Origin: Patescibacteria group bacterium
Lineage (GTDB): Bacteria > Patescibacteriota > Doudnabacteria > UBA920
Reading direction: 5' to 3'
Assembly (NCBI GenBank): GCA_013387205.1
Contig: WARV01000008.1
Span: forward strand, 136-64,135
Length of the DNA stretch: 64,000 nucleotides
Both the position numbers and the translations under genes were made by a program. This document shows positions 2,807 to 58,701 of the stretch, piece by piece. The stretch's first letter is position 1. Each line of letters begins with the position of its first letter. The notes under the pieces were generated by a model. That model searched no databases, had not been told where the DNA came from, and worked only from the letters and a program-made list of their open reading frames with translations.

Positions 2807-2814
2807 CCTTGGCT

Positions 2815-3035
2815 AAAATAAATTGACCTAATTGCTCTAAATTATTATTAACTCATCCTGTCCTTCTCTTTAGCAAAGAGAAGGAACCAGCTTAGCAAGG
2901 CTATAATCTTTCTTAGCATGTTCTCCCTCTTTATCATGGAGACAGAGGGAGTTAGTATTAGAAATTAGAAATTGGGAATTGTTTAGTCCGCCAGCTGGCG
3001 GAAATTAGGTCAATTAGGTTAATTAGAAATTCGCA
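2815..3035. repeat. composite intergenic palindromic element: family A termini (aattgacctaattgctctaa ... ttaggtcaattaggttaattagaaat) enclosing family B core and a CCGCCAGCTGGCGG palindrome
   Basis: Family A 5' module at 2821-2840 and 3' module at 3005-3030. B core 2851-2952 with hairpins tccttctctttAGCaaagagaagga and ctccctct..agagggag. Same composite found inverted at 30005-30177. Confidence 0.7.
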
Positions 3036-3039
3036 GCCT

Positions 3040-7874: not shown

Positions 7875-7912
7875 TTACTACGAAAAATGACGGCCGTCAT
7901 TTTTCGTAGTAA
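7875..7912. terminator. 38-bp perfect palindrome hairpin after rfbB
   Basis: ttactacgaaaaatgacggccgtcatttttcgtagtaa immediately after the rfbB stop. Confidence 0.5.
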
Positions 7913-13434: not shown

Positions 13435-13440
13435 AATAGA

Positions 13441-13583
13441 ATTGACCTAATTAACCTAATTATTTCTAATTATTCTAAATAAATCCTAATGACTAAACCC
13501 CAAAATCTGGTCGTAATTGGGTATTGGGACTTAGACATTATTTAGGTCAATTAGAGTAATTAGAATAATTAGGTTAATTCTTT
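13441..13583. repeat. family A palindromic intergenic element
   Basis: aattgacctaattaacctaattatttctaatt ... ttaggtcaattagagtaattagaataattaggttaatt. Confidence 0.7.
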
Positions 13584-13717
13584 GCTGAGTAGATCGTATT
13601 CATTAGCTTATAACGAATACTATTCTACTCGGCTATTCGGCCGGTAGATGCCTCCGAAAGGCGGCAAAAAATACGGTCGAAAAGACGAGTGACGAATTCT
13701 AAGGAGGAATTCAAGTT

Positions 13718-15235: not shown

Positions 15236-15413
15236 CGTTTAATCGGCGAAGGGGTGGGGGATTAGCCAAAAGCTATTCTCCCATCCCTCTCATACCTTTA
15301 AGGAAAAATTAAGATCTCTGGTTAAAATCCGTCAAAATCATCAGAATTAAGCGGAATTTAACGAGGGATGTTATAAATACGATAAAAATATAAAAAATCT
15401 AAATTTTTTTAGT

Positions 15414-15570
15414 GTCATTGCGAGCGATTTAAGGTCCGCCAGCTGGCGGATTGGCTTAAATTGCGTGGCAATCTAAGCAGGGAAAGATTACTTCCCCCTT
15501 CGCTAAAGCTACGTCGGACAAGTCGGATGCCCCAAAGGAGCCTCTTTGAGGCACTCCTCCTCGCAATGAC
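15414..15570. repeat. family C element (GTCATTGCGAG ... CTCGCAATGAC terminal inverted repeats) carrying a CCGCCAGCTGGCGG palindrome
   Basis: gtcattgcgag at 15414, ctcgcaatgac ending 15570, internal tcggatgccccaaaggagcctctttgaggcactcc module shared with 23296-23358. Confidence 0.7.
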
Positions 15571-24393: not shown

Positions 24394-24470
24394 AAAAATG
24401 ACAAGATTGACATAAATAATCTGCAGTTAATATTTTGTCATTTCCGTCGTTTTTGTCATTTTTGTCAATA
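24380..24470. repeat. family D (TGACA-rich) palindromic element
   Basis: aatgacaaaaattaaaaaaatgacaagattgacataaataat ... ttttgtcatttccgtcgtttttgtcatttttgtcaat, near-identical to 36145-36233. Confidence 0.6.
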
Positions 24471-24478
24471 AAAATATA

Positions 24479-26344: not shown

Positions 26345-26490
26345 ATTAACCTAATTATTCTAATTGCTCTAATTGACCCCGTGTCAGGCACGGGGCAGGC
26401 TCTAAATAAATCACAATACCCAAATCCAAAATTAAAAATTAGGTATTAGGATTTGATTAGACTAATTAGGTCAATTAGGTTAATTAGAAA
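26345..26490. repeat. family A palindromic element (contains ccccgtgtcaggcacgggg hairpin)
   Basis: aattaacctaattattctaattgctctaattgacc ... ttaggtcaattaggttaattagaaat. 3' module abuts the start codon of the next gene exactly as at 3005-3039. Confidence 0.7.
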
Positions 26491-26500
26491 TTTGCAGTCT

Positions 26501-28354
26501 ATGAAAACACAAAAATTATTTTTAGCGGCATTAATAACTATTTTACTCGCGCAGCCTATACTGTCTTTGGCTCAAGGCATTGAAACTGGGTTTGACCCGA
26601 ATAAGATTATTGACGACAAGATATTTTCCGATACCCAGACTTTCGGCGGGCCGGAAGGCGTACAGAAATTTTTGGAAGTTAAGGGCTCGATTCTTGCCAA
26701 TACCAGTCCGGATTTCATCGCCAAATTAAAAGAGCCGGACATAACCATGCTTAAGCAAGGACTGGAAGATCCAAGGCCTAATTTGGGGCGGATGAGGACG
26801 GCAGCCGAGCTTATTTGGGACGCGTCCATACAAAGCGGCCTTAACCCGCAGGTAATCATTGTGACTTTAAACAAAGAGCAGAGCCTTATTACCGGCCATC
26901 AGGATTCTTCTCCGGACAAAATGCAGAAAGCTTTGGATAGGGCCATGGGTTTTGATTGCCCGGACGCGACCGGGTGCGGTAATTTGTTTCCCGGGTTTTA
27001 TTACCAATTATTCGGCAATTTCGACTCAGACGGCAACCGCTATTTGGGCGCTGCCAAATCTTTAATGAAATCTTTCAATACTGACGGCGGCCGCGGCCCG
27101 CAAATTGACGGGCATATATCCAGAGTCGGGGATGTTGTTACTTTAGATAACACCATGGGCGGGTTTGACGGCGTGTCACCCAGCCAGACAATTACAATAA
27201 TGAACCGGGCTACCGCAGCTTTATACCGTTTTACTCCGCACGTGTTTAACGGCAATTATAATTTTTGGAGATTTTTTAATTCCTGGTTCAGGTACCCGAA
27301 CGGCACGCTTTTGTCTTTGGCAGGGGATATAAAAACTTATATCATCCAAAACGGCACCAAGCAGCTGGTTCCGGATTTTGTGGCCAAGGCGCGCAATTTG
27401 AACTTGGCATCGAAAATCACCATCTCGCCTAACGAATACGACAGCTATCCGACAGATAAAGTGTTCGGGCCGAAAGACGACACTATTGTAAAAACTACAG
27501 ATAACAGTAAGACTTACGTGTTTATTAATAATATAAAGCACCCGGCATCAAGTTTTGTAATTTCGCAGAGGGGACTTAATCCAACCCAGGCTTTGGAAGT
27601 TTCAAGCAGCGAAGCTTCGTTGTTCGATACTGGAAATGTTTTGCCGCCAAAAGACGGGACAATTATCCGAGGAGTAACTAATCCGGCAATATATTTGGTT
27701 GATGGCGGCAGGATAAAACTTTTCAGCGAGTATACTTTCAAGCAGAGAAAGATTGCAGCCAAACAGGTTACGCCAGTGCCCGATGATGAAATTACTACGT
27801 ATGAAAAACAGGGTTTTGTGCCGCCGCTCGACAACACTTTAATCAAGTCAACGGATAAAGGGACTGTATATTTGGTTGATAAAGGCTTAAAGCGGCCGGT
27901 GACCGCGGAGTTATTCAAAAACCGCGGGTTTAAAGTTAAAGATGTAGTCAGCTTGAGTCCGGACGAAGTTACGTCTTTGACGGTCGGTGCTTACGCCACG
28001 CCTAAAGATAAAACATTCTTTAAAGTTGCCGAGACCGGCCAGCTGTATATGTTTAAGGAAGGAAGCAAACATCCGATTTCCAGTTTTGTAGCTAAGCAGC
28101 GCGGTATAACTCCAGATTACACTTTTGGCCAGAGCATGGCTTACGAATGGTATGATGGTATTTCAATTCCGCCGAAAGATAACACTTTGGTTAAAGGCGC
28201 TAAAGACGGTACAGTATATTTAGTCAGTAAAGGACAGTTAAGACCGCTCACAGCCAAAGCGTTCAAGGCGAGGAAGTATAACATAAAAAACATCAAGACT
28301 TTGCCCCAAGACGAAGTTGACGCGTATGCGAAAGGGGATGTGGTAAATAAGTAA
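26501..28354 (+). CDS. secreted protein with six tandem ~58-aa repeats (PPKDGTxVK...TVYLVxxGxKRPI motif)
   Basis: Signal peptide MKTQKLFLAALITILLAQPILSLAQG. Repeats PPKDGTIIRGVTNPAIYLVDGGRIKLF / PPLDNTLIKSTDKGTVYLVDKGLKRPV / PPKDNTLVKGAKDGTVYLVSKGQLRPL etc. Track ORF start 26453 lies inside the repeat element. Confidence 0.75.
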   Translation: MKTQKLFLAALITILLAQPILSLAQGIETGFDPNKIIDDKIFSDTQTFGGPEGVQKFLEVKGSILANTSPDFIAKLKEPDITMLKQGLEDPRPNLGRMRTAAELIWDASIQSGLNPQVIIVTLNKEQSLITGHQDSSPDKMQKALDRAMGFDCPDATGCGNLFPGFYYQLFGNFDSDGNRYLGAAKSLMKSFNTDGGRGPQIDGHISRVGDVVTLDNTMGGFDGVSPSQTITIMNRATAALYRFTPHVFNGNYNFWRFFNSWFRYPNGTLLSLAGDIKTYIIQNGTKQLVPDFVAKARNLNLASKITISPNEYDSYPTDKVFGPKDDTIVKTTDNSKTYVFINNIKHPASSFVISQRGLNPTQALEVSSSEASLFDTGNVLPPKDGTIIRGVTNPAIYLVDGGRIKLFSEYTFKQRKIAAKQVTPVPDDEITTYEKQGFVPPLDNTLIKSTDKGTVYLVDKGLKRPVTAELFKNRGFKVKDVVSLSPDEVTSLTVGAYATPKDKTFFKVAETGQLYMFKEGSKHPISSFVAKQRGITPDYTFGQSMAYEWYDGISIPPKDNTLVKGAKDGTVYLVSKGQLRPLTAKAFKARKYNIKNIKTLPQDEVDAYAKGDVVNK

Positions 28355-28434
28355 CAAGTGGTATATAGTAAGTAGCAAGCAAGAGCGGGCGTTTCATCGC
28401 CCGCTCTTTATCTTATCTGTCTAATTTGTCCTGT

Positions 28435-28478
28435 ACCACCTTGATGGTCACCATCCGGATGGTGACCATCAAGGTGGT
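28435..28478. repeat. 44-bp perfect palindrome
   Basis: accaccttgatggtcaccatccggatggtgaccatcaaggtggt, preceded by hairpin agagcgggcgtttcatcgcccgctct (28382-28407) and followed by ccgccagccggcgg. Confidence 0.6.
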
Positions 28479-28560
28479 ATCTTGCTCCGCCAGCCGGCGG
28501 ATGATGCAAGGTGTCCTCTTGTTTTAAGGTATTGGATAATTCTGATATAATTAAACAGCA

Positions 28561-30177: not shown

Positions 30178-30208
30178 TCCAAAAAGTGTGTTATAATTTA
30201 ATTAATAT

Positions 30209-30415
30209 ATGAAATCTAAGGAAACAAAAAACAATCAAATATTAGACAGCTTTTGGCCTATGATTTTTGTTGCGGTTGCGGCGGTGATATCGGTAGGGAT
30301 AATTATGTGGTCTGCTAATATGTCAAAGCTTCAGGAAGATTTGACATCTTTGAGCGTGGCCAAGCATAGCACCCAGACACAGGCAAAGGTTTTGGGCGAG
30401 GCTGTGAAGCGGTAG
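30209..30415 (+). CDS. small hypothetical membrane protein
   Basis: 68-aa ORF with one TM, no SD, TATAAT-like box directly upstream. Confidence 0.35.
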   Translation: MKSKETKNNQILDSFWPMIFVAVAAVISVGIIMWSANMSKLQEDLTSLSVAKHSTQTQAKVLGEAVKR

Positions 30416-36143: not shown

Positions 36144-36144
36144 A

Positions 36145-36233
36145 AATGACAAAAATTAAAAAAATGACAGAATTGACATAAATAATTGGCCCAATAATTT
36201 TGTCATTTACGTCGTTTTTGTCATTTTTGTCAA
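36145..36233. repeat. family D (TGACA-rich) palindromic element
   Basis: aaatgacaaaaattaaaaaaatgacagaattgacataaataat ... tttgtcatttacgtcgtttttgtcatttttgtcaat. Confidence 0.6.
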
Positions 36234-36289
36234 TGTGATTATTTTTGTGGTATTATTAAATTAATTATTATTATCTTCTTACTTTAATT

Positions 36290-37549: not shown

Positions 37550-37648
37550 ATTAACCTAATTATTCTAAACAAATCCCAATTCCTAATTTCTAAAATTAGA
37601 CATTATTTAGAATAATTAGAGCAATTAGAATAATTAGGAATAATTATA
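37550..37648. repeat. family A palindromic element
   Basis: aattaacctaattattctaaac ... ttagaataattagagcaattagaataattagg. Confidence 0.65.
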
Positions 37649-37650
37649 CC

Positions 37651-39441
37651 ATGTCTAAAATAACAGCACAGCAACTGCGAACTAAATATCTCGAATTCTT
37701 CAAATCCAAAGGCCATACCGTTATCCCTTCGGCGTCTTTGGTGCCGGAAAACGATTCTTCAGTTTTGTTTACCACAGCGGGAATGCATCCTTTGGTTCCT
37801 TATCTTTTAGGGCAGCAGCATCCGGGCGGAAAAAGGGTGACAAACGTGCAAAAGTGCATCAGGACCGGCGATATTGACGAAGTTGGGGATAATACCCATC
37901 TGACCTTTTTTGAGATGCTTGGAAACTGGAGCTTTGGGGATTATTTCAAGAAAGAGGCGATTTCCTGGAGCTTTGAATTTTTGACAAGCAAAGATGGTTT
38001 GAATTTGCCGCTGGAGCGTTTGGCGTTTTCAGTTTTTGCCGGAGACCAGGATGCTCCGCGCGATGAAGAAGCCGCCGGCATTTGGAAGTCGTTAGGCGTT
38101 AAGGAAGAAAGAATCGCGTATTTGCCGAAAGAAGATAACTGGTGGATAGCGGGAAACACCGGGCCATGCGGACCTGACACGGAAATGTTTTATTGGATAG
38201 ACGATGGCACGCCGGCTCCGGCAAATTTCCAGGAGACTAAAGAAGACAAGCGTTGGGTGGAAATTTGGAATGACGTGTTTATGCAGTTTGAAAAACAGCC
38301 GGATGGCAAGCTTGTTCCCTTAAAACAGCAAAACGTGGATACTGGGATGGGTTTGGACAGGACCTTGGCAGTTTTAAACGGACAAAAATCTGTTTATGAC
38401 ACAGAAATCTTTAAGCCATTGTTCGATGTTTTGTCTTTGGGCCAGGAAGTAATGTCTAACGATGAAATCCGCAAAGCCAGGATAATCTTAGACCACATTC
38501 GCGCATCAGTTTTTATTGTTGCCGACGGTGTCGAGCCGTCTAATAAAGACAGGGGTTATGTTTTAAGAAGGCTCCTGCGGCGCAGTATGGTTTACGGCAA
38601 GCTTTTGAATCTGCAAAACCATTGGCTCAAGGCGCTTATTGGCCAAGTTATGGCGATTTATGGCGATGCGTATCCGGGAATTGTCAGAGACAGCAATAGG
38701 ATTTTTGAAGTAATAGAAGCAGAGCAGAAAAAATTCGGCTTAACGCTCGAAAAAGGACTTAAACAATTAGAATCAAGAATCAAGAATCAAGAATCAGGCG
38801 GACTGACAGGCAAGGAAGCTTTTGATTTGTATCAATCATTCGGTTTTCCATGGGAGCTGACCAAGGAGATGGCGGAAGCGATTGGGCAAAAAATCAATAA
38901 GGAAGAATTTGAAACTGAATTCAAAAAGCACCAGGAATTATCCCGCACCGCCAGTGCCGGTCAGTTTAAAGGCGGGCTTGGCGGCAATAGCGAAAAAATC
39001 GTGAAATATCATACTGCTACGCACTTGATGAACGCAGCGTTAAGGCAAGTGCTTGGAGAGCATGTCTGGCAAAAGGGGAGCAACATCACCGAAGAGCGCA
39101 CCAGGTTCGATTTTACACATCCTCAAAAAATGACCGAAGAGGAAAAATTGAGCGTTGAAGCTTTGGTTAACGGATGGATTAGCCAAGATTTGCAGGTTAA
39201 AAAAGACATTATGCCTATTGAAGAGGCTAGAAAATTAAACGCCATTGGGGTGTTCGGCGAGAAATATTCTGACACAGTATCCGTTTATACAATTGCCGAC
39301 ACCAATACGGGCGAAGTGGTATCCCGCGAACTTTGCGGCGGCCCGCACGTCGAACATACCGGGGTGATAGGAAAATTCAAGATACAAAAAGAAGAAGCGT
39401 CCAGTGCAGGTATCCGCCGCATAAAAGCAACTATAGAATAG
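37651..39441 (+). CDS. alaS: alanyl-tRNA synthetase, short form (catalytic + editing domains, no C-Ala domain)
   Basis: N-terminus FFKSKGHTVIPSASLVPENDSSVLFTTAGMHP ... FFEMLGNWSFGDYFK. Editing HxxxH region HTATHLMNAALRQVLGEHVWQKGS and CGGPHV. In-frame aatcaag x3 heptad at 38769-38796. Confidence 0.9.
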   Translation: MSKITAQQLRTKYLEFFKSKGHTVIPSASLVPENDSSVLFTTAGMHPLVPYLLGQQHPGGKRVTNVQKCIRTGDIDEVGDNTHLTFFEMLGNWSFGDYFKKEAISWSFEFLTSKDGLNLPLERLAFSVFAGDQDAPRDEEAAGIWKSLGVKEERIAYLPKEDNWWIAGNTGPCGPDTEMFYWIDDGTPAPANFQETKEDKRWVEIWNDVFMQFEKQPDGKLVPLKQQNVDTGMGLDRTLAVLNGQKSVYDTEIFKPLFDVLSLGQEVMSNDEIRKARIILDHIRASVFIVADGVEPSNKDRGYVLRRLLRRSMVYGKLLNLQNHWLKALIGQVMAIYGDAYPGIVRDSNRIFEVIEAEQKKFGLTLEKGLKQLESRIKNQESGGLTGKEAFDLYQSFGFPWELTKEMAEAIGQKINKEEFETEFKKHQELSRTASAGQFKGGLGGNSEKIVKYHTATHLMNAALRQVLGEHVWQKGSNITEERTRFDFTHPQKMTEEEKLSVEALVNGWISQDLQVKKDIMPIEEARKLNAIGVFGEKYSDTVSVYTIADTNTGEVVSRELCGGPHVEHTGVIGKFKIQKEEASSAGIRRIKATIE

Positions 39442-39489: not shown

Positions 39490-39513
39490 GCCCCAAAGGG
39501 GCCCCTTTGGGGC
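39490..39513. terminator. 24-bp perfect GC-rich palindrome after alaS
   Basis: gccccaaaggggcccctttggggc. Confidence 0.5.
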
Positions 39514-40726: not shown

Positions 40727-40748
40727 CTTTAAAGCTTAATCGTCTTGA

Positions 40749-40840
40749 TTGACAAAATTGTCATAATTTAAAAAATTGACACAAATATTACTGCAGTTTA
40801 TTTATGTCAATTTTGTCATTTTTTTATTTTTGTCATTTCA
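40749..40840. repeat. family D (TGACA-rich) palindromic element
   Basis: gacaaaattgtcataattt ... ttatgtcaattttgtcatttttttatttttgtcattt. Confidence 0.55.
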
Positions 40841-40880
40841 TTTGCTATTGCTTTATTAACAAAATAAGCATAAAATAAGG

Positions 40881-42787: not shown

Positions 42788-43042
42788 TTGATATACAGTA
42801 ATCAAGACTTAGGAAAGTCCGGTAAAAATAAGAAAGATGTCATCGAACTTGAGGGCAAAGTCATTGAAAATTTGCCTAATGCTATTTTTCGTGTCCAGCT
42901 GGATTCAGGTCAGGTTGTTGTGGGCCATCTATCCGGAAAAATGAGAGTGAATATGATAAAGGTTCTGCCTGGCGACAGGGTTATTATTGAAATGACTCCT
43001 TATGATTTATCAAAAGGCAGAATTACAAGAAGAATGAGATAA
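42788..43042 (+). CDS. infA: translation initiation factor IF-1
   Basis: [38 protein letters not shown]...[24 protein letters not shown]. Start is TTG at 42788 or further in. Confidence 0.85.
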
Positions 43043-43045
43043 GTA

Positions 43046-43133
43046 ATATAATCCGAATTATCCGAATATAATCCAAATGACCCGAAATAGGACTCATTTG
43101 GGCATTCGGATGGTAATTCGGGGAATTAGGATT
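43046..43133. repeat. family E long imperfect inverted-repeat element
   Basis: taatccgaattatccgaatataatccaaatgacccgaa ... catttgggcattcggatggtaattcggggaattaggatta, ends 6 nt before the rpmJ ATG. Confidence 0.65.
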
Positions 43134-43139
43134 ATATCT

Positions 43140-43253
43140 ATGAAAGTCAGGGCAAGTGTTAAACCAATGTGCAAGAAGTGCAAAGTTGTTAAAAGATTCG
43201 GCAGGATTTACATTATTTGCGAAAATCCAAAGCATAAGCAGCGCCAAGGCTAA
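43140..43253 (+). CDS. rpmJ: 50S ribosomal protein L36
   Basis: [37 protein letters not shown]. Below ORF-track size cutoff. Confidence 0.85.
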
Positions 43254-43764: not shown

Positions 43765-43765
43765 C

Positions 43766-43871
43766 ATAATCCGAATTATCCGAATAATCCGCCAGCTGGC
43801 GGACCAAATGACCCGAAAAAGGGAGAAGCCATTTGGGGCATTCGGATGGTAATTCGGGGTATTAGGATTAA
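43766..43871. repeat. family E element carrying an inserted CCGCCAGCTGGCGG palindrome (43789-43802)
   Basis: cataatccgaattatccgaataatc[cgccagctggcgg]accaaatgacccgaaaaagg ... catttggggcattcggatggtaattcggggtattaggatta. Confidence 0.65.
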
Positions 43872-43880
43872 TATTACATT

Positions 43881-46018: not shown

Positions 46019-46086
46019 AACAATGACAAAATTGACATAATTGACAAAAATGACAAAAATATTGCAGCAAAATTATGTTCAATTTT

Positions 46087-46141
46087 ATTAGCTCCTCAGC
46101 TCGGAAATTTAATTAATTAAATTTCCGAGCTGAGGAGCTAA
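46087..46141. terminator. 54-bp perfect palindrome between rpoA and rplQ (terminator/attenuator candidate)
   Basis: ttagctcctcagctcggaaatttaattaattaaatttccgagctgaggagctaa, preceded by a family D fragment (46021-46060). Confidence 0.5.
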
Positions 46142-46181
46142 TACAGGGTATTTAATTATTTAAAGTATGATCAATTAATTT

Positions 46182-46526
46182 ATGCGCCATCAAAAGAAGA
46201 AAAAAATAGGCAAAGGAACTGACCATAGGAGAAAATTACTCAGAACACTTGCATCCTCGGCAATTCTTTACGAGAAGATTGAGACTTCTTATGCTAATGC
46301 CAGGGCCGTAAAGCCGTATCTGGAAAAAGCCATAACCCAAGCTAAAGATAATTCCTTGTATAGCAGGAGATTGTTGCTTTCCAGGCTGAGCACCATGGCC
46401 ACGAAAAAAGCTTTGGAAGTTTTAGGGCCTAAGTATAAGGAAAGAAAAGGCGGTTATACCAGGATGATTAAGCTGAATAATCCGCATGAAGGAAAGTCAA
46501 AAGTAATTTTGGAATTAGTAGAGTAA
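46182..46526 (+). CDS. rplQ: 50S ribosomal protein L17
   Basis: MRHQKKKKIGKGTDHRRKLLRTLASS ... GGYTRMIKL. Confidence 0.9.
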   Translation: MRHQKKKKIGKGTDHRRKLLRTLASSAILYEKIETSYANARAVKPYLEKAITQAKDNSLYSRRLLLSRLSTMATKKALEVLGPKYKERKGGYTRMIKLNNPHEGKSKVILELVE

Positions 46527-46528
46527 CA

Positions 46529-46619
46529 TAATCCGAATTATCCGAATATTATCCAAATGACCCGAATAGGGAAGAACTCATTTGGGGCATTCGGATGCTG
46601 ATTCGGGGGATTAGGATTA
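46529..46619. repeat. family E long imperfect inverted-repeat element
   Basis: cataatccgaattatccgaatattatccaaatgacccgaatagg ... catttggggcattcggatgctgattcgggggattaggatta, ends 6 nt before the rplM ATG. Confidence 0.65.
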
Positions 46620-46625
46620 ATAATT

Positions 46626-47069: not shown

Positions 47070-47657
47070 TTGACAGAAAACAGTCAAATGTCACATGTCA
47101 AAGGTCACAGGTTTATTAAGATGCCAACTAAGACTACTACAACTAAAAAGACTACCAAGCCCAGAGCGCCCAGGAAAACTGCGGCTAAGCCTGCTGCGGC
47201 TCATGCCAAAAAGGCGGCAGAGCCCAAAGCGGAAGCTGCCAAAACGGCAGAGGTACAGCATTTGCCAAAAGGCGAATACGTTTTTGCCACAGGCAGGAGA
47301 AAAACTTCCATTGCCAATGTCAGATTGTTTTCCGGAAAAGGCGAAAGCATTGTAAACAAGAAGCCATTCGCTACTTACTTTGGCTATACCATTTACCAAA
47401 ATGAAGTAAACAGGCCTTTTGAGGTAACCGGTTTGGTTAACCACTATCATTTTGTTTGCAGCGTAAACGGCGGCGGCCCGCACTCGCAAGCGCAGGCTTT
47501 GCGCCACGGAATTTCTTTGGCTTTAAGCAGGATCTCTCCCGAAGTCAGGAAAGTTTTAAAGAAGAACGGATATCTTACCCGCGATGACAGGCAAAAAGAA
47601 AGAAAGAAACCAGGCTTAAAAAGAGCCCGCCGCGCACCACAGTGGGCGAAACGTTAA
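47070..47657 (+). CDS. rpsI: 30S ribosomal protein S9 with K/A/T-rich N-terminal extension
   Basis: GRRKTSIANVRLFSGKGESIVN ... VNGGGPHSQAQALRHGISLAL ... RDDRQKERKKPGLKRARRAPQWAKR. Start may be the internal Met at 47121. Confidence 0.9.
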   Translation: MTENSQMSHVKGHRFIKMPTKTTTTKKTTKPRAPRKTAAKPAAAHAKKAAEPKAEAAKTAEVQHLPKGEYVFATGRRKTSIANVRLFSGKGESIVNKKPFATYFGYTIYQNEVNRPFEVTGLVNHYHFVCSVNGGGPHSQAQALRHGISLALSRISPEVRKVLKKNGYLTRDDRQKERKKPGLKRARRAPQWAKR

Positions 47658-48786: not shown

Positions 48787-49120
48787 AGTGCTTTAAGCAA
48801 ACTCATAAGCCGAATTCTGTTTCTAAATAATCATCTGTCTAGCCCTTAAATTGCTCTAAGGGTCAAGCAGCCTACCTAACTTGGCTTTGCACTCAAGTAA
48901 GAGTTTAGCCGTTTCACCTTGGCATTGCTACCAAGACGATCCAATTGCTTGGATCTCCTAGCCTTTCGGCATCGGACGTTTCTGTTCGCATCTCGCACCT
49001 TGCGGTGGACGGGAATTACCCGCTACCCTTTTTGATAACTCTATAGAGGCTATCAAACAAGTGTTCGGACTTTCCTACCCAATTTTTACATTGGATTGAT
49101 TATTCGATTTGCTTAAAGCT
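48787..49120 (-). ncRNA. rnpB: RNase P RNA (bacterial type)
   Basis: Minus-strand sequence contains CR-I GGUAGGAAAGUCCGAACAC (rc of about 49061-49079), GGUGCGAGAUGCGAACAG region, and CR-IV/V AACAGAAUUCGGCUUAUGAG (rc of about 48800-48820). P1 helix gcuuuaagcaaa (49119-49108) pairs with uuugcuuaaagc near the 3' end. Terminator follows at 48757-48786. Promoter TTGACA-17-TAGAAT on minus at 49154-49126. Confidence 0.75.
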
Positions 49121-49198: not shown

Positions 49199-50635
49199 AT
49201 GAAGAAAGCGGAGCTTATTTTTAACTTGGTGACCATACCAATGGACGGCTTAATGATAATAGCCGCCGGTGTGGTATCGTTTTTTATTAGGCAAAGGTCA
49301 ATAAATTTTATCGGACCCATTATCTACCAGCTGAATTTGGGCGATTTTGTCAGTACCGTTTACAAGCTTGCCCCTATTTTGATTCTTATTTTCGCTGTGC
49401 TAGGCTTGTATAACTTAAGAGGGACAAGAAAGTTTTCCGACGAGTTTTCCAAAATTGTCATCGGAATTTCCCTGGGGCTTTTGATTGTCATGCTCTTATT
49501 CTTCTTTAACCAGACAATTTTCCCTTCCAGGTTCATAATTTTAGCCACCTGGGGGTTGGGAATTTTGTTCGTGGTAGCCGGCCGCCTTGCATTAAAATTA
49601 GTCCAGCAGCTTTTGTTCTACCAAAACATCGGCCTGCATAAATTGGTTGTTATAAATAGCGAAAGCGGAAACATTTCGGTAATTGAACAGGTTTATAAAA
49701 ATAAAAAATACGGATACGAAATAACCAGCGAGTTGGAATATTCGGAAAGTATTTTTGAAAAGCTGCAAAATTTATACGACAATAAAAAAATCGACGAAAT
49801 TTTACAGGCTAATCCAGGGCTGGGAGACGAAATAAACTTGAGACTAGTCCAATTTGCCCGGAATAAAGGCTTGCAGTTCAGTTTCGTGCCGAACCTTTTT
49901 GAAGTCCAGAGAAATTCGATAGAAACTTACAACTTAAAAGGCGTTCCGGTAATCAGCCTGAAAAATACTCCGCTGGACGGCTGGGGAAAAGTCGCCAAAA
50001 GGATTTTGGATATTACAGCATCAACAATTTGCCTGGTTATAACCAGTCCGCTGTTTTTAATTATCTATATTGCCATTAAAATCGACAGTGAAGGCAAGGT
50101 GATTTATTCCGCTTTGCGCGGCGGCTGCGGCAGGGATTTTCCGTTTTACAAATTTAGGAGCATGTACAGCCACTTAAGCGTAGGCGCAATGTATGGCGGC
50201 GATGGAGCGGAAAAAGTCAGGCAGGAGCTTTGGAAAGTCAACAGCCGCGGCGGGGCAAGCGGACCGTTCTTGAAAATCAAAGATGACCCAAGAGTTACCA
50301 AGGTTGGAAAGTTTTTGCGTAAAACCAAGCTCGACGAAATTCCGCAATTTTGGAACGTGCTTAAAGGCGATATGAGCATGGTTGGCCCAAGAGCCCACGT
50401 TTTGGATGAAGTTGATCGGTACAGAAACCGCTACCGCAGGATGTTTTCAATAAAGCCCGGAATTTTTGGTATGTCGCAAATAGCGCAAAGTTCCTGGCCG
50501 GATTTGCCGTTTGAGGAAGAAATCAAGCTCAACACGTTTTATATTGAAAACTGGAGCCTATGGCTGGATTTGAAAATTTTGGCAAAAAGCTTTTGGCTTA
50601 TCTTTTTCGGCAGCAAAGCCAGGGAAGATTATTAA
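49199..50635 (+). CDS. polyprenyl-phosphate sugar phosphotransferase (bacterial sugar transferase, WbaP/EpsB-like)
   Basis: C-terminal LDEIPQFWNVLKGDMSMVGPRA conserved motif, N-terminal TM bundle. Start ATG 49199 preceded by tgatataat box (near-leaderless). Track start 49109 would overlap rnpB. Confidence 0.85.
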   Translation: MKKAELIFNLVTIPMDGLMIIAAGVVSFFIRQRSINFIGPIIYQLNLGDFVSTVYKLAPILILIFAVLGLYNLRGTRKFSDEFSKIVIGISLGLLIVMLLFFFNQTIFPSRFIILATWGLGILFVVAGRLALKLVQQLLFYQNIGLHKLVVINSESGNISVIEQVYKNKKYGYEITSELEYSESIFEKLQNLYDNKKIDEILQANPGLGDEINLRLVQFARNKGLQFSFVPNLFEVQRNSIETYNLKGVPVISLKNTPLDGWGKVAKRILDITASTICLVITSPLFLIIYIAIKIDSEGKVIYSALRGGCGRDFPFYKFRSMYSHLSVGAMYGGDGAEKVRQELWKVNSRGGASGPFLKIKDDPRVTKVGKFLRKTKLDEIPQFWNVLKGDMSMVGPRAHVLDEVDRYRNRYRRMFSIKPGIFGMSQIAQSSWPDLPFEEEIKLNTFYIENWSLWLDLKILAKSFWLIFFGSKAREDY

Positions 50636-50642
50636 TATATAA

Positions 50643-50733
50643 TCCGAATTACCCGAAATATTTATCCAAATGCCCCAAATAAAATAAGATGCATTCGGAT
50701 AATTCGGATGTTAATTCGGGGCATTAGGATTAC
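50643..50733. repeat. family E long imperfect inverted-repeat element
   Basis: ataatccgaattacccgaaatatttatccaaatgccccaaat ... gcattcggataattcggatgttaattcggggcattaggatta, ends 4 nt before the GT4 ATG. Confidence 0.65.
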
Positions 50734-50737
50734 ATTA

Positions 50738-51949
50738 ATGAGGGTTGCTTTAGCACATGATTCGTTTACTCAATTAGGCGGAGCGGAAAGGGTAATTGCA
50801 GAATTACACGAGATGTTTCCGGAAGCCCCGATTTTTACTTTGGTTTTAGACCGGAAGTTAAAGGGTGATTTTGCCGGCTGGGATATTAGGACATCATGGC
50901 TTCAGGTGTTATACAATTTCATTCCCAAGTTGCAGTACCTTTTGCCATTTATTCCTCTTGCTGTTTCGTCCTTGGATTTGTCCGGGTACGATGTGGTAAT
51001 TTCTTCCAGCTCAAGCTGGATTAAGAATATCAAGACGCCGAAAAATTGCATCCATATCTGCTATTGCCACACGCCTACCAGGTTTTTATGGGTAGATAAA
51101 GATTATGTGTCGCAAGAAGTGCCGAAATTTTTAAAGCCTTTGGTAAATTGGCTGCTTAAATTAATGAAAAAGTGGGATTTTAAAAAGGCGCAAAAAATCA
51201 ATTTTTTTATTGCCAACTCCAAAGAAGTCCAAAATAGGATTTCCCAATATTACCATCGTGACAGCGTAATAATTTACCCGCCGGTTGATACAAATTTTTG
51301 GCATCCAATCGCCCCGTCATCGTCATTGCGAGTGCAGCCGAAGCAATCTGTTAGATCAAACCAAGAGATTGCTTCGTCCACCTTCGCTGAAGCTACGGCG
51401 GACCTGCGATCGGATGCACTTCTCGCAATGACATCAAAAAAGGATTATTTCCTTATTGCCGGACGCCTGCAAGCGCACAAAAAGAATAATTTAATTGTTG
51501 AGATATTTAACGAGATCGGCTTGCCTTTGCACGTAGCGGGGACAGGACGCCAGGAAGATTATTTGCAATCCATTGCCAAGCCAAATATCAAATTTTTAGG
51601 CAGGATTAGCGACGAACAACTTAGGGATGAATACAGCGGAGCAAAAGGTTTAATTTTCCCGCAGCTCGAAGATTTAGGGCTAATTCCCATAGAAGCGGCC
51701 AGCTGCGGCACGGCAACTATCGCTCTTGCCAAAGGAGGTTCTTTGGAAACTGTAGTTCCCGGAGTAACAGGGGAATTATTTGAAACTTACGATAAGGAAA
51801 AAATCAAACAGATAATTCTTTCATGGAACCCGGATAAATATTCCCAAGAAAATTTAACGGTTCACGCTAAAAAGTTCGGCAAAAATTCATTTAAGGAAAA
51901 ATTATTGGAATTCATAAATAAAAATAATCTCAATGAAAGAAAGGTTTGA
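50738..51949 (+). CDS. GT4-family glycosyltransferase with in-frame 37-codon repeat-element insertion
   Basis: MRVALAHDSFTQLGGAERV (GT4 N-domain) ... FLIAGRLQAHKKNNLIVEIF ... FPQLEDLGLIPIEAASCGTATIA (GT4 C-domain). Inserted segment SLRVQPKQSVRSNQEIASSTFAEATADLRSDALLAMT corresponds to the family C element. Confidence 0.85.
   Translation: MRVALAHDSFTQLGGAERVIAELHEMFPEAPIFTLVLDRKLKGDFAGWDIRTSWLQVLYNFIPKLQYLLPFIPLAVSSLDLSGYDVVISSSSSWIKNIKTPKNCIHICYCHTPTRFLWVDKDYVSQEVPKFLKPLVNWLLKLMKKWDFKKAQKINFFIANSKEVQNRISQYYHRDSVIIYPPVDTNFWHPIAPSSSLRVQPKQSVRSNQEIASSTFAEATADLRSDALLAMTSKKDYFLIAGRLQAHKKNNLIVEIFNEIGLPLHVAGTGRQEDYLQSIAKPNIKFLGRISDEQLRDEYSGAKGLIFPQLEDLGLIPIEAASCGTATIALAKGGSLETVVPGVTGELFETYDKEKIKQIILSWNPDKYSQENLTVHAKKFGKNSFKEKLLEFINKNNLNERKV
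51322..51432. repeat. family C element (GTCATTGCGAG...CTCGCAATGAC), 111 bp, inserted in-frame within GT4 coding sequence
   Basis: gtcattgcgag 51322-51332, ctcgcaatgac 51422-51432, internal gaagcaatctgtt..aagagattgcttc hairpin. 111 = 3 x 37, reading frame preserved. Confidence 0.7.
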
Positions 51950-53931: not shown

Positions 53932-54045
53932 ATACTAATATGTACTAAATATACTAAAGTAATATACCAGCAGTGATATCAATTAAGTATATTTGGATGA
54001 TATTTAGTACCTTTAGTATTAATTAGTATTTAGTAGAAAGATTAG
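53931..54045. repeat. family F palindromic element, copy 2 (inverted relative to 9521-9633)
   Basis: taaatactaatatgtactaaatatactaaagtaatataccagcagtgatatcaattaag ... ctttagtattaattagtatttagtag. Confidence 0.6.
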
Positions 54046-54059
54046 TAGTAAAAATATTT

Positions 54060-57280: not shown

Positions 57281-58701
57281 TAAATCTAGACCAAGTTAAC
57301 AAAATTTATTTTATCGGCATTGGCGGAATTGGAATGTCTGCCGCGGCAGGCTTGGCAAAATCCATGGGTTTTGAAGTCTCCGGCAGCGATTCCAAAGAGA
57401 TTTATTCGCCCGCAAAAGAAGTGCTGGATGGATATAAGATAAATTACACCGCGGGCTATGGCGAAGAAAATGCAAAAAAATTCCAGGCAGATTTGTATGT
57501 TCTTTCAGCCGGTGAAGGGATGGGGAATCCTGAAATTAAATATGTCGTGGACAACGGTTTGCCGCACGTTTCTTTTGCCGAGCTGCTTTATTATTTAAAT
57601 AAGGATAAAATTAGGATTGTGGTAACCGGAACCCATGGCAAATCAACAACGTCGGGCCTTTTAGGGTACTTGCTTAAAGATTTGGATAACGGCTCGTTTT
57701 TTACCGGCGCGGTTTTAAATAATTTAAATTCCAATTTCCATGAGGGTGACGGCCATTATATTGTCTTTGAAGGCGACGAATATAAATCCGAATTCGACGA
57801 CCCGACACCGAAATTCCATTATTATAAGCCAGACATTTTAGTTTTGACCAACCTGGAATACGACCATCCGGATATTTTTGAAAATTTGGAGGCATTGGAG
57901 CAGGAATTCGAGCAGCTAATCTCCAATTTGCCTGAAGATGGATTGATTGTCTATAACGCGGACGATCCGAACCTTTCCAGGCTTGTCCATAAAAGCGAGG
58001 TTAGTTCTATAAGTTTTGGCATAGAAAACGAAGCGGATTTTAAGGTTGAAAAGATTGAGTACGGAGAATATACGGATTTTGAAATCACAAATAAATTTTC
58101 CAAGGATATTTTGGGCAAGACTTTGGGATTAACGGAGAATTATAAAATCCAGCTTCCGGGTAAAATTAACGTGTATAATTCTTTGGCTGCAATTTCTACG
58201 CTTCGGGCGCTGGGTTTCCAGCCTGACCAATTGGCATTGAGTTTACTGTCTTTTACAGGATTAAAGAGAAGGTTTGAAATTGTTGGCATTAAAAACGGCA
58301 TTACGCTGATAGATGATTATGCCCATCATCCGACTGCTGTAAAGGAAACACTGGATGCCGCCAGGTTAAAGTTTAGCAAGGCGAAAATCTGGGCTGTTTT
58401 TGAGCCGCACACTTTTAGCAGGACAAAAGCGACTTTAAAAGATTTGGCCAAATCTTTTAATTCAGCTGATGAGGTTTTGATTTCCGAAATTTATCCAGCC
58501 AGGGAAAAAGTTCAAGATGCGACAATAACCGGCCAGGAAGTAGTTGAGGCTATACAGTCTAAAAATCCAGTTAGGTTGATTAAAAACAAGGAACAGGCGC
58601 TGGATATCCTGAAAAAAGAGGCAAAAGCCGGAGATGTGTTGGTGGTTATGGCGGTCGGGGCGTTCAATAAGCTTGCTTATGAACTGAAGGAGTTGTTGTA
58701 G
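57277..58701 (+). CDS. murC: UDP-N-acetylmuramate--L-alanine ligase
   Basis: IYFIGIGGIGMSAAAGLAKSMGFEVSGSD ... VVTGTHGKSTTSGLL. ATGA overlap with patatin gene. Confidence 0.8.
   Translation: MINLDQVNKIYFIGIGGIGMSAAAGLAKSMGFEVSGSDSKEIYSPAKEVLDGYKINYTAGYGEENAKKFQADLYVLSAGEGMGNPEIKYVVDNGLPHVSFAELLYYLNKDKIRIVVTGTHGKSTTSGLLGYLLKDLDNGSFFTGAVLNNLNSNFHEGDGHYIVFEGDEYKSEFDDPTPKFHYYKPDILVLTNLEYDHPDIFENLEALEQEFEQLISNLPEDGLIVYNADDPNLSRLVHKSEVSSISFGIENEADFKVEKIEYGEYTDFEITNKFSKDILGKTLGLTENYKIQLPGKINVYNSLAAISTLRALGFQPDQLALSLLSFTGLKRRFEIVGIKNGITLIDDYAHHPTAVKETLDAARLKFSKAKIWAVFEPHTFSRTKATLKDLAKSFNSADEVLISEIYPAREKVQDATITGQEVVEAIQSKNPVRLIKNKEQALDILKKEAKAGDVLVVMAVGAFNKLAYELKELL

Follow-up and report, generated by a model that had tools for sequence, protein, structure and literature searches.

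The window analysed here, a 64-kb stretch of Doudnabacteria DNA with a GC content of 42%, carries a short GC-rich palindrome at four places, all of them intergenic and within co-directional gene runs. Three exact copies of the 14-mer CCGCCAGCTGGCGG lie at 2988-3001, 15436-15449 and 43789-43802, and a variant, CCGCCAGCCGGCGG, at 28487-28500; a preliminary description of this DNA had placed three of them correctly and the second exact copy one base too far to the right. At all four sites the palindrome grows by one base per side, giving TCCGCCAG(C/T)..., and the full unit is the 16-bp perfect palindrome TCCGCCAGCTGGCGGA (TCCGCC-AGCT-GGCGGA), exact at 2987-3002, 15435-15450 and 43788-43803 and present in variant form at 28486-28501. 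The 16-mer contains CAGCTG (PvuII-like) and is often extended to a 17- or 18-mer by an asymmetric T(T/C) tail. No other perfect palindrome of at least 14 bp recurs in the window. From base composition, 3.3e-6 exact 16-mers would be expected where three are observed, and a search allowing up to two mismatches to the 14-mer returns four matches against 0.16 expected from shuffles, a count reached in none of 100 shuffles.

The three exact copies are non-coding, have unique flanks and sit inside three unrelated intergenic repeats. Copy 1 (2987-3002) lies 38 nt upstream of the start codon of lgt and occupies the right arm of a family A/B composite, an intergenic mosaic (2807-3039) in which family A arms, built of AATTAGGTC units with a 9-bp period, are combined with hairpins of family B. 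Copy 2 (15435-15450, forward strand) has a T tail behind it and caps a longer hairpin (15426-15463) in a family C element, GTCATTGCGAG...CTCGCAATGAC, which extends over 15412-15570 (GTGTCATTGCGAGCG ... CCTCGCAATGAC); this 38-nt stretch folds as DNA at -9.7 kcal/mol (z = -4.7). Copy 3 (43788-43803, reverse strand) has its tail on the opposite strand (AATCCGCC...) and is located in the left arm of a family E element with periodic inverted arms of ATCCGAAT (43765-43880), which fills the spacer between rpsM and rpsK. The S13 protein encoded in the window is 91% identical to its best GTDB relative. The variant copy, TCCGCCAGCCGGCGGA (28486-28501, forward strand), has a T-to-C change in the loop and likewise caps a longer hairpin (28479-28512, -10.8 kcal/mol); it lies 60 nt upstream of the gene for a polysaccharide flippase and immediately downstream of a unique 46-bp perfect palindrome (28434-28479). 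The latter had been recorded as 44 bp long; likewise, the statement that the motif is always embedded in other repeats holds for the three exact copies, the fourth merely adjoining this palindrome.

The idea that the motif is a tiny secondary insertion was borne out by the comparison of repeat copies with and without it, which in families A and E differ by one clean 13-nt gap. Aligned with its paralogues at 26400-26510, 13500-13585 and 37575-37655, copy 1 stands out by a single 13-nt insert, GCCAGCTGGCGGA, positioned after TCC: the empty family A arm at 26446-26507 reads TTAG-ACT-AATTAGGTC where copy 1 reads TTAG-TCC-GCCAGCTGGCGGA-AATTAGGTC. A single gap of the same length separates copy 3 from its paralogues E1 (43040-43142), E3 (46520-46625) and E4 (50632-50740), the empty sites being found at 46527-46625 in E3 and likewise at 43043-43140 in E1. 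In other genomes, the 16-mer is present in some and absent from others among close orthologues. Since the window contains far more copies than chance would give and the insertion boundaries are clean, the insertion proposal stands. The related suggestion that it might be a target for other insertions is turned around by these alignments, as the motif itself is the inserted sequence.

Across the filled and empty pairs, the incoming patch swaps out 1 to 10 nt for a net gain of 6 to 17 nt, the numbers of replaced nucleotides being approximate since some of the "empty" sites are diverged paralogues and not ancestors. Several patches abut short matches, with TCC on the left and TT or CAGCTGG-like cores, and no target-site duplication was found in any filled-versus-empty pair. 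The recipients include intergenic repeats of AT-rich composition, palindromic elements of other kinds, hairpin tips already in place, pseudo-tRNAs and the loops of protein genes. These comparisons show that the 16-mer was written secondarily into pre-existing sequence. The tRNA-like hosts are pseudo-copies beside intact tRNAs; a tRNA intron or true tRNA arm was considered and rejected, as ARAGORN finds no tRNA across the palindrome and no deletion of 8-29 nt restores one.

When in frame within protein genes, essential ones among them, the 16-mer reads (N)PPAGG, as found in YebC, TrpRS, TsaD, PrmC and RseP. YebC proteins of Giovannonibacteria that are 77-99% identical have either an empty KEL-G or a filled KNPPAGG-G site, and TrpRS has either xP-I-FPEP or xP-PAGG-FPEP. 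The gains preserve the frame, amounting to 12 nt in YebC, 9 nt in TrpRS, 15 nt in RseP (L056) and five amino acids in TsaD. In TrpRS, synonymous differences number 2/15 inside the palindrome versus 15/27 in the flanks (p = 0.01, from four divergent orthologues only), and this lower divergence fits selection on the DNA no less well than it fits conversion. Some of the coding matches could be ordinary PPAGG codons. A related double hairpin, TCCGCC-AAA-GGCGGA followed by TCCGCC-TCT-GGCGGA, occurs only in relatives; its two units are in tandem, not inverted, and changes in its stems are compensatory. In 4 of about 60 relatives this 33-nt sequence lies in frame at the N-terminus of S9 (rpsI), where it leaves the peptide SAKGGSASGGK. 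The motif is best read as a member of a family of tiny GC-rich hairpin repeats, dispersed in Patescibacteria, in which the stem TCCGCC/GGCGGA is fixed and the loop measures 3-4 nt.

The 16-mer is identical, letter for letter, in Doudna-, Giovannoni- and Shapirobacteria-like lineages. Among the metagenome matches listed, 100 of 125 sites lie on contigs of at most 50% GC, a proportion uncorrected for the GC make-up of the scan itself. The complete viral scan (IMG/VR) gave 15 low-GC versus 42 high-GC sites, mostly GC-rich coding matches, and the two splits differ with a Fisher p of 5e-12. The low-GC copies among the metagenome matches listed come from many independent projects, occur in the same kinds of context as in the window and include four second copies on the same contig, against 3e-5 expected. 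Periodic repeats of AT-rich sequence, elements of the GTCATTGCGAG type, pseudo-tRNAs and genes with an in-frame "(N)PPAGG" are among the settings recorded. Some arrangements recur from place to place: the family C-type host element with its 16-mer is also found in L084, L148, L159, L173 and L202, the AGCC loop variant in L056, L109 and L260, and the flanks of copy 3 (AA before the 16-mer, CCAAA after it) in L132, L174 and L197. Many of the matches listed have an A at -1 or a T at +1, but few have both (10 observed, 20.8 expected). Patescibacteria genomes are roughly 90% coding, so that intergenic sites, which make up 60% of the metagenome matches listed, with about 40% inside ORFs, are over-represented. 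Relative to transcription, orientation is evenly divided among the matches listed (13 same, 13 opposite).

The distribution is patchy. The motif is absent from the rpsM surroundings in 79 of 80 Patescibacteria loci, the one match falling inside the rpsK coding sequence, at another position; its density is 4 per 64 kb here versus 1 per 1.23 Mb in the 80 related loci, and between genomes it ranges from 0 to about 60 per Mb. In both L257 and L259, three to five exact or variant copies are found within 20 kb around dnaA/dnaN, L257 having three exact copies no more than 20 kb from dnaA. Each of these two carries a perfect copy opposite a look-alike with 4-6 mismatches in its counterpart, and at their PBP and jag sites decay is seen, contrary to the TrpRS pattern. 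DnaA, DnaN, RnpA, YidC or Jag are encoded on none of the roughly 100 metagenome loci among the matches listed, and when the 1,209 ORFs lying no more than 3 kb from about 100 listed copies were compared all against all, no family recurred in more than three loci. A literature search found no paper that mentions the sequence or the peptides derived from it, nor any that describes repeats of this type in Patescibacteria.

On balance, we lean towards the view that the motif is a mini-hairpin repeat, non-autonomous and disseminated by insertion or conversion of short patches; it has the look of a propagating DNA hairpin, extremely small and hitherto undescribed. One could envision that a donor copy, or a single-stranded fragment thereof, anneals at a microhomology and is incorporated as a short patch, in a process akin to short-patch illegitimate recombination or gene conversion. 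Being self-complementary and GC-rich, the 16-mer would be well suited to annealing within AT-rich DNA, whichever the strand, and the new copies would then decay by point mutation unless re-converted or selected. We infer this mechanism from its end products, neither intermediate nor donor having been seen. The four copies in the window are best regarded as passengers of the intergenic repeats, with no sign that the downstream genes are under their control. A process of the required kind has been described as SPDIR, for short-patch double illegitimate recombination, in which ectopic single strands integrate at microhomologies to give micro-indels of variable size (bioRxiv 10.1101/2023.11.22.568220). 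SPDIR resembles the events seen here in that a few bases are swapped for a short ectopic patch at microhomologies, with variable net size and no duplication; it is, however, a rare and sequence-unspecific mutation process, and by itself it would not predict one palindrome as a repeated donor. Annealing alone fails to explain why the same 16-mer, and not just any GC-rich palindrome, is found in the three lineages named above, which suggests a sequence-specific factor.

Such a factor is central to the main rival explanation, that a conserved, sequence-specific DNA-binding protein recognises the motif and selection maintains it, insertion into repeats being merely how new sites happen to arise. 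The site could be centromere-like or nucleoid-organising (parS/NBS-type), an operator, an uptake signal or a methylation-linked palindrome comparable to HIP1. A DNA-binding-protein site had been among the original suggestions; we consider selection for binding the less probable account. A perfect 16-bp palindrome matches parS and Noc-binding sites in length and dyad symmetry, and these too occur as a handful of copies in genes or spacers; the sharing of one sequence by the three lineages, the few copies per region, the cluster near dnaA in L257 and L259 (which have no canonical parS there), the conservation of TrpRS synonymous sites and the indifference to the direction of transcription among the matches listed would all be in keeping with a binding site. 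Yet individual sites are not kept between relatives, as the rpsM loci and the mismatched counterparts in L257 and L259 illustrate; genomes differ in density by orders of magnitude; the metagenome loci among the matches listed show no enrichment of origin-region genes; and copies reside within pseudo-tRNAs and other selfish-looking repeats. Neither ParB nor a restriction-modification or regulator candidate was recognised in the window. Homing and restriction-modification, also proposed at the outset, gained no support: no gene for a homing endonuclease or a restriction-modification system was found among the roughly 50 window proteins, and neither these nor a binding protein gains from the neighbourhoods of the roughly 100 copies listed elsewhere, which have no gene family in common. 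Canonical parS (TGTTNCACGTGAAACA) is unrelated in sequence, and its matches in the window and in L257 have three mismatches, the chance level. DNA uptake sequences (DUS/USS) occur about once per kb throughout the genome in all members of a lineage, and at the densities given above the motif was rejected as one of these. HIP1, GCGATCGC, is an 8-bp cyanobacterial palindrome with roughly one copy per kb that is spread by substitution. The motif resembles it as an exact palindrome shared phylum-wide, in coding and non-coding DNA, and perhaps kept beyond neutral expectation; it differs in being 16 bp long, rare and acquired as an insertion patch.

Movement by a protein encoded elsewhere is a further alternative, the motif then being a miniature REP/REPIN-type hairpin mobilised as single-stranded DNA by a single-copy HUH (RAYT/IS200-like) or other transposase, which we deem unlikely. 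REPs are imperfect palindromes of 20-40 bp with stems of 6-9 bp and a GTAG (or CGTC) at one end, many of them in pairs as inverted doublets and some of them intragenic (PMC3733652). The gene for their cognate RAYT, a Y1 transposase of the IS200/IS605 kind, frequently has REPs on its flanks. The motif is akin to them as a short GC-rich stem-loop, non-autonomous, with a 6-bp stem within that range, one asymmetric end in the form of the T(T/C) tail, a mostly extragenic location with some intragenic copies and a patchy, burst-like genomic distribution. With 16-18 nt, however, it is about half as long; it replaces target bases with variable net insert length instead of moving as a fixed unit; and the window copies are single, not inverted doublets. 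REP tags are absent as a rule, since within 8 nt of 100 listed low-GC copies GTAG/CTAC is found in at most two flanks per side and CGTC in at most seven. No transposase, RAYT included, was found among the window proteins, and none is common to the listed neighbourhoods. Moreover, REP families usually differ between species or genera, whereas this motif is identical in three Patescibacteria lineages. Less probable still is that the hairpin acts as RNA between genes, as a terminator, processing site or mRNA stabiliser. The intergenic location of the window copies in co-directional gene runs, the stable fold, the fact that two copies cap longer hairpins and the stem covariation of the related double hairpin would be in keeping with such a function; against it, canonical T-run terminators exist elsewhere in the window but no U-run follows any window copy (flanks AAATTAGG, TTGGCTT, TGATGCA and CCAAATG), on which ground an intrinsic terminator was rejected, and there is no orientation bias, about 40% of the listed copies elsewhere are inside ORFs and no Rfam match was obtained, RNase P RNA being the only known RNA family found in the window. 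An origin by chance, from coding coincidence or as an artefact (an adapter, for instance) of sequencing or assembly has a negligible probability overall and is effectively refuted for the window copies. Some GC-rich viral and metagenome matches do resemble ordinary IRQLAE or PPAGG coding sequence, but three exact non-coding copies in a window of this composition are far beyond expectation, each has its own flanks, and the low-GC enrichment among the matches listed extends across independent projects. We know of no adapter with this sequence.

Other mobile repeats were compared as well. A MITE, which has terminal inverted repeats on both sides of an internal segment and a target-site duplication, was rejected, as the motif has no internal segment and the filled-versus-empty pairs show no duplication. 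Yeast mitochondrial GC clusters are organellar elements of 30-60 bp reported with short flanking duplications. They resemble the motif as GC-rich palindromic mini-elements of AT-rich intergenic DNA, nested in repeats and sometimes in frame, but no flanking duplication accompanies the motif copies. A parallel for the coding insertions is provided by the Rickettsia palindromic elements (RPEs), which are inserted in frame in unrelated housekeeping genes and in structural-RNA genes and are tolerated as surface loops (PMC10969869). Like RPEs, the motif is a palindromic repeat of a reduced genome found in tRNA-like sequences and, in frame and tolerated as a surface loop, in unrelated protein genes; unlike them, it measures 16-18 nt (33 nt for the double hairpin) against about 100-150 bp, and it occurs across Patescibacteria and not in one genus.

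At 16-18 nt, the hairpin is shorter than every repeat class compared here except the 8-bp HIP1. It nests in other repeats and is tolerated in frame in trpS, yebC, tsaD and, as the double hairpin, rpsI. The genomes of Patescibacteria (CPR) are tiny and streamlined, an unlikely setting for selfish repeats to prosper, and to our knowledge the intergenic DNA of these bacteria has hardly been studied. If the hairpin is spread by annealing-driven patch recombination, it would show that process at work in nature as a drive; if it is recognised by a protein, it would mark some transaction on DNA, be it segregation, uptake, repair or methylation, that is common to the phylum. It is tempting to go further and to speculate, tentatively, that the motif may be either the smallest self-propagating DNA so far described or the recognition site of a phylum-conserved factor that keeps the exact sequence even at synonymous sites. 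Under the self-propagating alternative, if true, a palindrome of 16-18 nt would use annealing-driven short-patch recombination to copy itself into new sites, among them essential genes, genes resembling tRNAs and other mobile elements, needing no element-encoded or dedicated transposase, and would pass between Patescibacteria classes via environmental DNA uptake. In practical terms, the (N)PPAGG and SAKGGSASGGK peptides can mislead the alignment and annotation of CPR proteins, and strains might be told apart by whether they carry the element.

A phage origin was also considered, and was rejected on the ground that the complete IMG/VR scan gives mostly GC-rich coding coincidences. A 15-mer variant of the motif, TCCGCCAGAGGCGGA, resembles the operators of phage lambda (CCGCCAGAGG), a likeness that we take to be coincidental.

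The preliminary description took a 14-bp palindrome, CCGCCAGCTGGCGG, embedded in repeats of the window, to be a tiny secondary insertion or else a target motif (homing, restriction-modification or a DNA-binding protein). Exact copies lie at 2988-3001, 15436-15449 and 43789-43802, and a variant, CCGCCAGCCGGCGG, at 28487-28500; of the positions first reported, only that of the second copy needs correcting, its true start being one base further to the left. The window holds four matches with up to two mismatches, against a mean of 0.16, and never four, in shuffled sequence. In all four copies the symmetry reaches one base beyond the 14-mer on either side, which makes the unit a 16-bp perfect palindrome, TCCGCCAGCTGGCGGA. 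No other perfect palindrome of at least 14 bp recurs within the window; base composition (42% GC) predicts 3.3e-6 exact 16-mers in 64 kb. In computed folds of single-stranded DNA, AGCT forms the loop and six base pairs the stem of the 16-mer (-5.9 kcal/mol); pairing extends into the flanks at 15435 and 28486, so that the motif caps longer hairpins (-9.7 and -10.8 kcal/mol, respectively).

Comparison with paralogues bears out both the secondary insertion and its clean boundaries. Aligned with three paralogues, the family E copy between rpsM and rpsK differs by one 13-column gap that holds the motif. The motif-bearing copy of family A likewise shows a single 13-column gap containing it, and neither alignment reveals a target-site duplication. 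In this family A copy, TCC occupies the three variable positions that separate TTAG from AATTAG; the added sequence is therefore GCCAGCTGGCGGA, completing the palindrome on TCC. Downstream of the window copies, at distances of 38-285 nt, are lgt, a DUF11 surface protein gene, a flippase gene and rpsK. There is no sign of a common regulon for these genes, and the copies are best seen as passengers within intergenic repeats.

The window organism is a member of Candidatus Doudnabacteria (Patescibacteria/CPR), its S13 being 91% identical to that of the best species representative. The genes, nearly all on the + strand, include those for ribosomal proteins, RpoA, AlaRS, SecA, MurB, MurG and many cell-envelope glycosyltransferases. 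A scan of about 50 window proteins revealed no domain of a transposase, a restriction-modification system, ParB or a homing endonuclease, and the only Rfam match is RNase P RNA. Between genes lie mosaics of palindromic repeats nested in one another: long AT-rich inverted arms with 9-bp periodic units (AATTAGGTC, TGACAAAAT, ATCCGAATT), GTCATTGCGAG...CTCGCAATGAC elements, and long perfect palindromes, each unique (58 bp at 46086-46143; 46 bp at 28434-28479; 38 bp at 7875-7912, between rmlB-like and rmlD-like genes; 26 bp at 58435-58460, within an ORF; 24 bp at 39490-39513). Most spacers form long imperfect hairpins with AT-rich arms of 9-bp periodic units, including the three above and TACTAAATA (2807-3039, 13435-13580, 24394-24478, 26345-26507, 36144-36250, 37550-37650, 40727-40880, 43043-43140, 43765-43880, 46019-46070, 46527-46625, 50636-50740 and 53932-54059). 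The spacer units GGTCAAT/GGTTAAT bear what we take to be a loose resemblance to CtsR-type heptad repeats. The rpsM-rpsK spacers of relatives (L002, L004, L005, L009, L010, L016 and L024) share this architecture with unrelated unit sequences. A PstI site (CTGCAG) forms the centre of two family D hairpins (24420-24427, 40790-40797) and other family D centres carry TTGGCCCAA or TTGCAGCAA, which suggests that AT-rich hairpin tips are general hot spots for short GC-containing palindromes. A gene-free segment of 759 nt (1463-2221) contains GC-rich structured-looking stretches, together with an inverted repeat of 46 nt (2049-2153), and matches no Rfam family at the gathering threshold. Two unlisted small ORFs lie in "intergenic" DNA: rpmJ (L36; 43140-43256), between infA and rpsM, and a possible membrane-protein ORF after 30210, within 30200-30415.

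Around rpsM, 80 Patescibacteria loci totalling 1.23 Mb contain a single exact copy; it lies in frame in the variable S11 N-terminus of L029 and reads APPAGGS. An exact-match search with the 16-mer found at least 120 stretches in public metagenome contigs. Among the matches listed, 100 of 125 flanked metagenome sites are on contigs of at most 50% GC, the class in which chance is least likely to yield the motif. A complete scan of viral contigs placed 15 of 57 sites on low-GC contigs, and the others look like ordinary GC-rich coding sequence (Fisher p = 5e-12 for the GC distribution of the metagenome matches listed against that of the viral sites, on raw counts unscaled for metagenome GC make-up). 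The low-GC contigs among the matches listed carry four additional exact copies, against 3e-5 expected, plus loop variants. The contexts match those in the window: AT-rich periodic inverted repeats, with the motif at the centre or in an arm (L090, L101, L120, L179, L196, L200), GTCATTCCGAG-type elements (L084, L148, L159, L173) and the tips of pre-existing hairpins (L195, L117, L149, L193, L182). Carrier loci among the matches listed are mostly without kinship to one another. Named relatives place carriers in three lineages, namely the Doudnabacteria of the window, Giovannonibacteria (L121, L257-L259) and a third clade (L093) whose named members are Shapirobacteria and "Patescibacteria group"; SecA, TopA and RecG are only 43-52% identical between different carriers.

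Of 104 copies among the matches listed, rough gene calling puts 62 between genes, a strong excess in genomes that are about 90% coding. Around about 100 low-GC copies among the matches listed, the preceding base is A in 43% and T in 4%, and the following base T in 49% and A in 9%. The joint occurrence of A before and T after is rarer than expected (10 versus 20.8, chi-square about 19); hence the element is asymmetric, TCCGCCAGCTGGCGGAT(T/C) or, on the other strand, AATCCGCC... The low-GC copies listed bear no conserved GTAG or CGTC tag. Relative to flanking co-directional genes, 13 of the listed copies have the same orientation and 13 the opposite one.

Long ORFs hold the other 42 of the 104 copies among the matches listed, and 25 of these read PPAGG, mostly as N-PPAGG, an 18-mer of six codons. 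In Giovannonibacteria YebC orthologues 77-99% identical to L121, some have AAK-EL-GADP and others AAK-NPPAGG-GPDP, and decayed forms (PPASGG, PPVGNG) are seen too. In the DNA, AATCCGCCAGCTGGCGGA takes the place of GAATTG, and this net gain of 12 nt separates contigs 97.6% identical across the adjacent 11 kb. Among 120 TrpRS homologues the majority have F-xP-I-FPEP and a subset F-xP-PAGG-FPEP; the net gain of 9 nt in the filled form again begins from a TCC and stops before TT. Across four trpS orthologues, synonymous differences number 2 of 15 within the palindrome versus 15 of 27 in the flanks (p = 0.01). RseP gains 15 nt (L056 versus L072), TsaD 5 aa and PrmC 4-6 aa. Some coding matches (SecA) leave length unchanged, and part of the coding matches could be ordinary PPAGG codons. 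Small GIY-YIG nuclease ORFs lie directly upstream of palindrome-bearing trpS in two of three loci (L261, 9609-9923; L262, 6125-6421 and 6537-6794), and a racemase gene takes that place in L260; this may be coincidence, or may provide a lead to a nuclease partner.

Non-coding sites give a similar picture. The 16-mer replaces ACT in L133 (net +13), GTCGCC in L089 (net +10) and, in L182 versus L165, the hairpin tip TCGGTAAGAT (net +6). In a pseudo-tRNA-Gly of L128, compared with the neighbouring intact tRNA, AGCAT-CAGCT has become TCCGC-CAGCT-GGCGGA (net +6). In a pseudo-tRNA-Asn of L162, CCAAGTGG has become TCCG-CCAGCTGG-CGGA (net +8), and another segment is replaced by the variant TCCGCCGACCGGCGGA. 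Such pseudo-tRNA copies (L128 757-852, L162 1041-1150, L103 1-125, L133 1228-1323, L126 3572-3667, L097 1533-1628, L194 767-862) adjoin intact tRNA genes (Gly-CCC, Asn-GTT, Met and others), with D-loop or anticodon/variable-region segments replaced by the 16-mer; the D-loop CAGCTGG may serve as an anchor. According to ARAGORN, none of the copies lies within a functional tRNA, nor does any deletion recreate one. Overall, each change is a patch of variable net length, without duplication at any site compared, and several patches adjoin short matches to the element (TCC, CAGCT(GG), GGCGG). Where L257 and L259 do not share a site, one has a perfect copy and the other a look-alike with 4-6 mismatches; decay and conversion both fit.

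The motif has thus been added secondarily to many types of host sequence, is dispersed in a patchy, burst-like manner across genomes, is neutral as to the strand transcribed, lacks a local partner gene, and enters as variable patches with microhomology and no duplication. Most likely, a new copy arises where an existing one, or a single-stranded piece of it, pairs at a microhomology and is incorporated as a short patch; being GC-rich and self-complementary, the 16-mer would anneal unusually well in AT-rich DNA, on either strand. This process would resemble short-patch double illegitimate recombination, where microhomologies at the replication fork pair with ectopic single strands and micro-indels of variable size result (bioRxiv 10.1101/2023.11.22.568220). 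Annealing does not explain the exact sequence common to the named lineages or the low synonymous difference within the TrpRS palindrome, both of which point to a sequence-specific factor or ongoing conversion.

In the chief alternative, selection would maintain a protein-recognition site comparable to parS/NBS, HIP1 or an uptake signal. A 16-bp dyad symmetry would suit such a site, as would the three to five exact or variant copies around dnaA in L257 and L259, where canonical parS is absent. However, relatives do not keep individual sites, density differs hugely between genomes, origin loci are not enriched among the matches listed, and copies reside in pseudo-tRNAs and other selfish repeats. 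REP-like transposition of the 16-mer, which might involve a distant transposase, fails on tag and size and is at odds with the variable boundaries. An RNA-level role for the hairpin is unlikely, since window copies have no following U-run, strand bias is absent, and 40% of copies elsewhere among the matches listed are inside ORFs.

Mitochondrial GC clusters are small GC-rich palindromes of AT-rich spacers, nested in repeats and tolerated in frame. The element, REPs and Rickettsia palindromic elements likewise colonise AT-rich spacers as small GC-rich palindromes, nest in repeats and are tolerated in frame, the last being documented for Rickettsia (PMC10969869). The element lacks the defining features of each of these families that was tested. 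Our literature search found no paper with the 16-mer sequence, its derived peptides or such repeats in Patescibacteria; we place the element among the short dispersed palindromic repeats. It is quite possible, though less likely than not, that its mechanism, or a factor recognising it, is new in kind.

A tandem double hairpin that reuses the stem of the 16-mer, TCCGCC-AAA-GGCGGA, TCCGCC-TCT-GGCGGA, AAA (33 nt, TCCGCCAAAGGCGGATCCGCCTCTGGCGGAAAA), occurs in Doudnabacteria and other Patescibacteria loci (L010 11283, L012 13293, L046 13406, L058 6083, L033 13460 and 13908, L001 11690), with compensatory stem changes across loci (TCCTCC/GGAGGA, TCCACC/GGTGGA, TCCGTC/GACGGA, CCCGCC/GGCGGG). In L010, L012, L046 and L058 it forms an 11-codon in-frame insertion, SAKGGSASGGK, in the S9 N-terminus, absent from the window S9 (47070-47657) and about 55 other loci; a PolX-like gene of L033 has two internal double hairpins. 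The RNase P RNA gene of L012 (14827) carries a single 15-mer hairpin, TCCGCCAGAGGCGGA, and a second small hairpin; that of the window (48790-49115) has no such sequence where L012 has TCCGCCAGAGGCGGA. Finally, a viral contig family of about 50% GC (e.g. IMGVR_UViG_3300042540_000531) has two to three 16-mers per roughly 34 kb (members: L218, at 1064 and 10272; L248, at 2635; L210, L213, L214, L220, L228 and L254). These copies are extended to AAT...ATT and each lies 10-15 nt from a conserved CTTTAGTAGGGGG motif, with which it could form a terminator-promoter or operator module.
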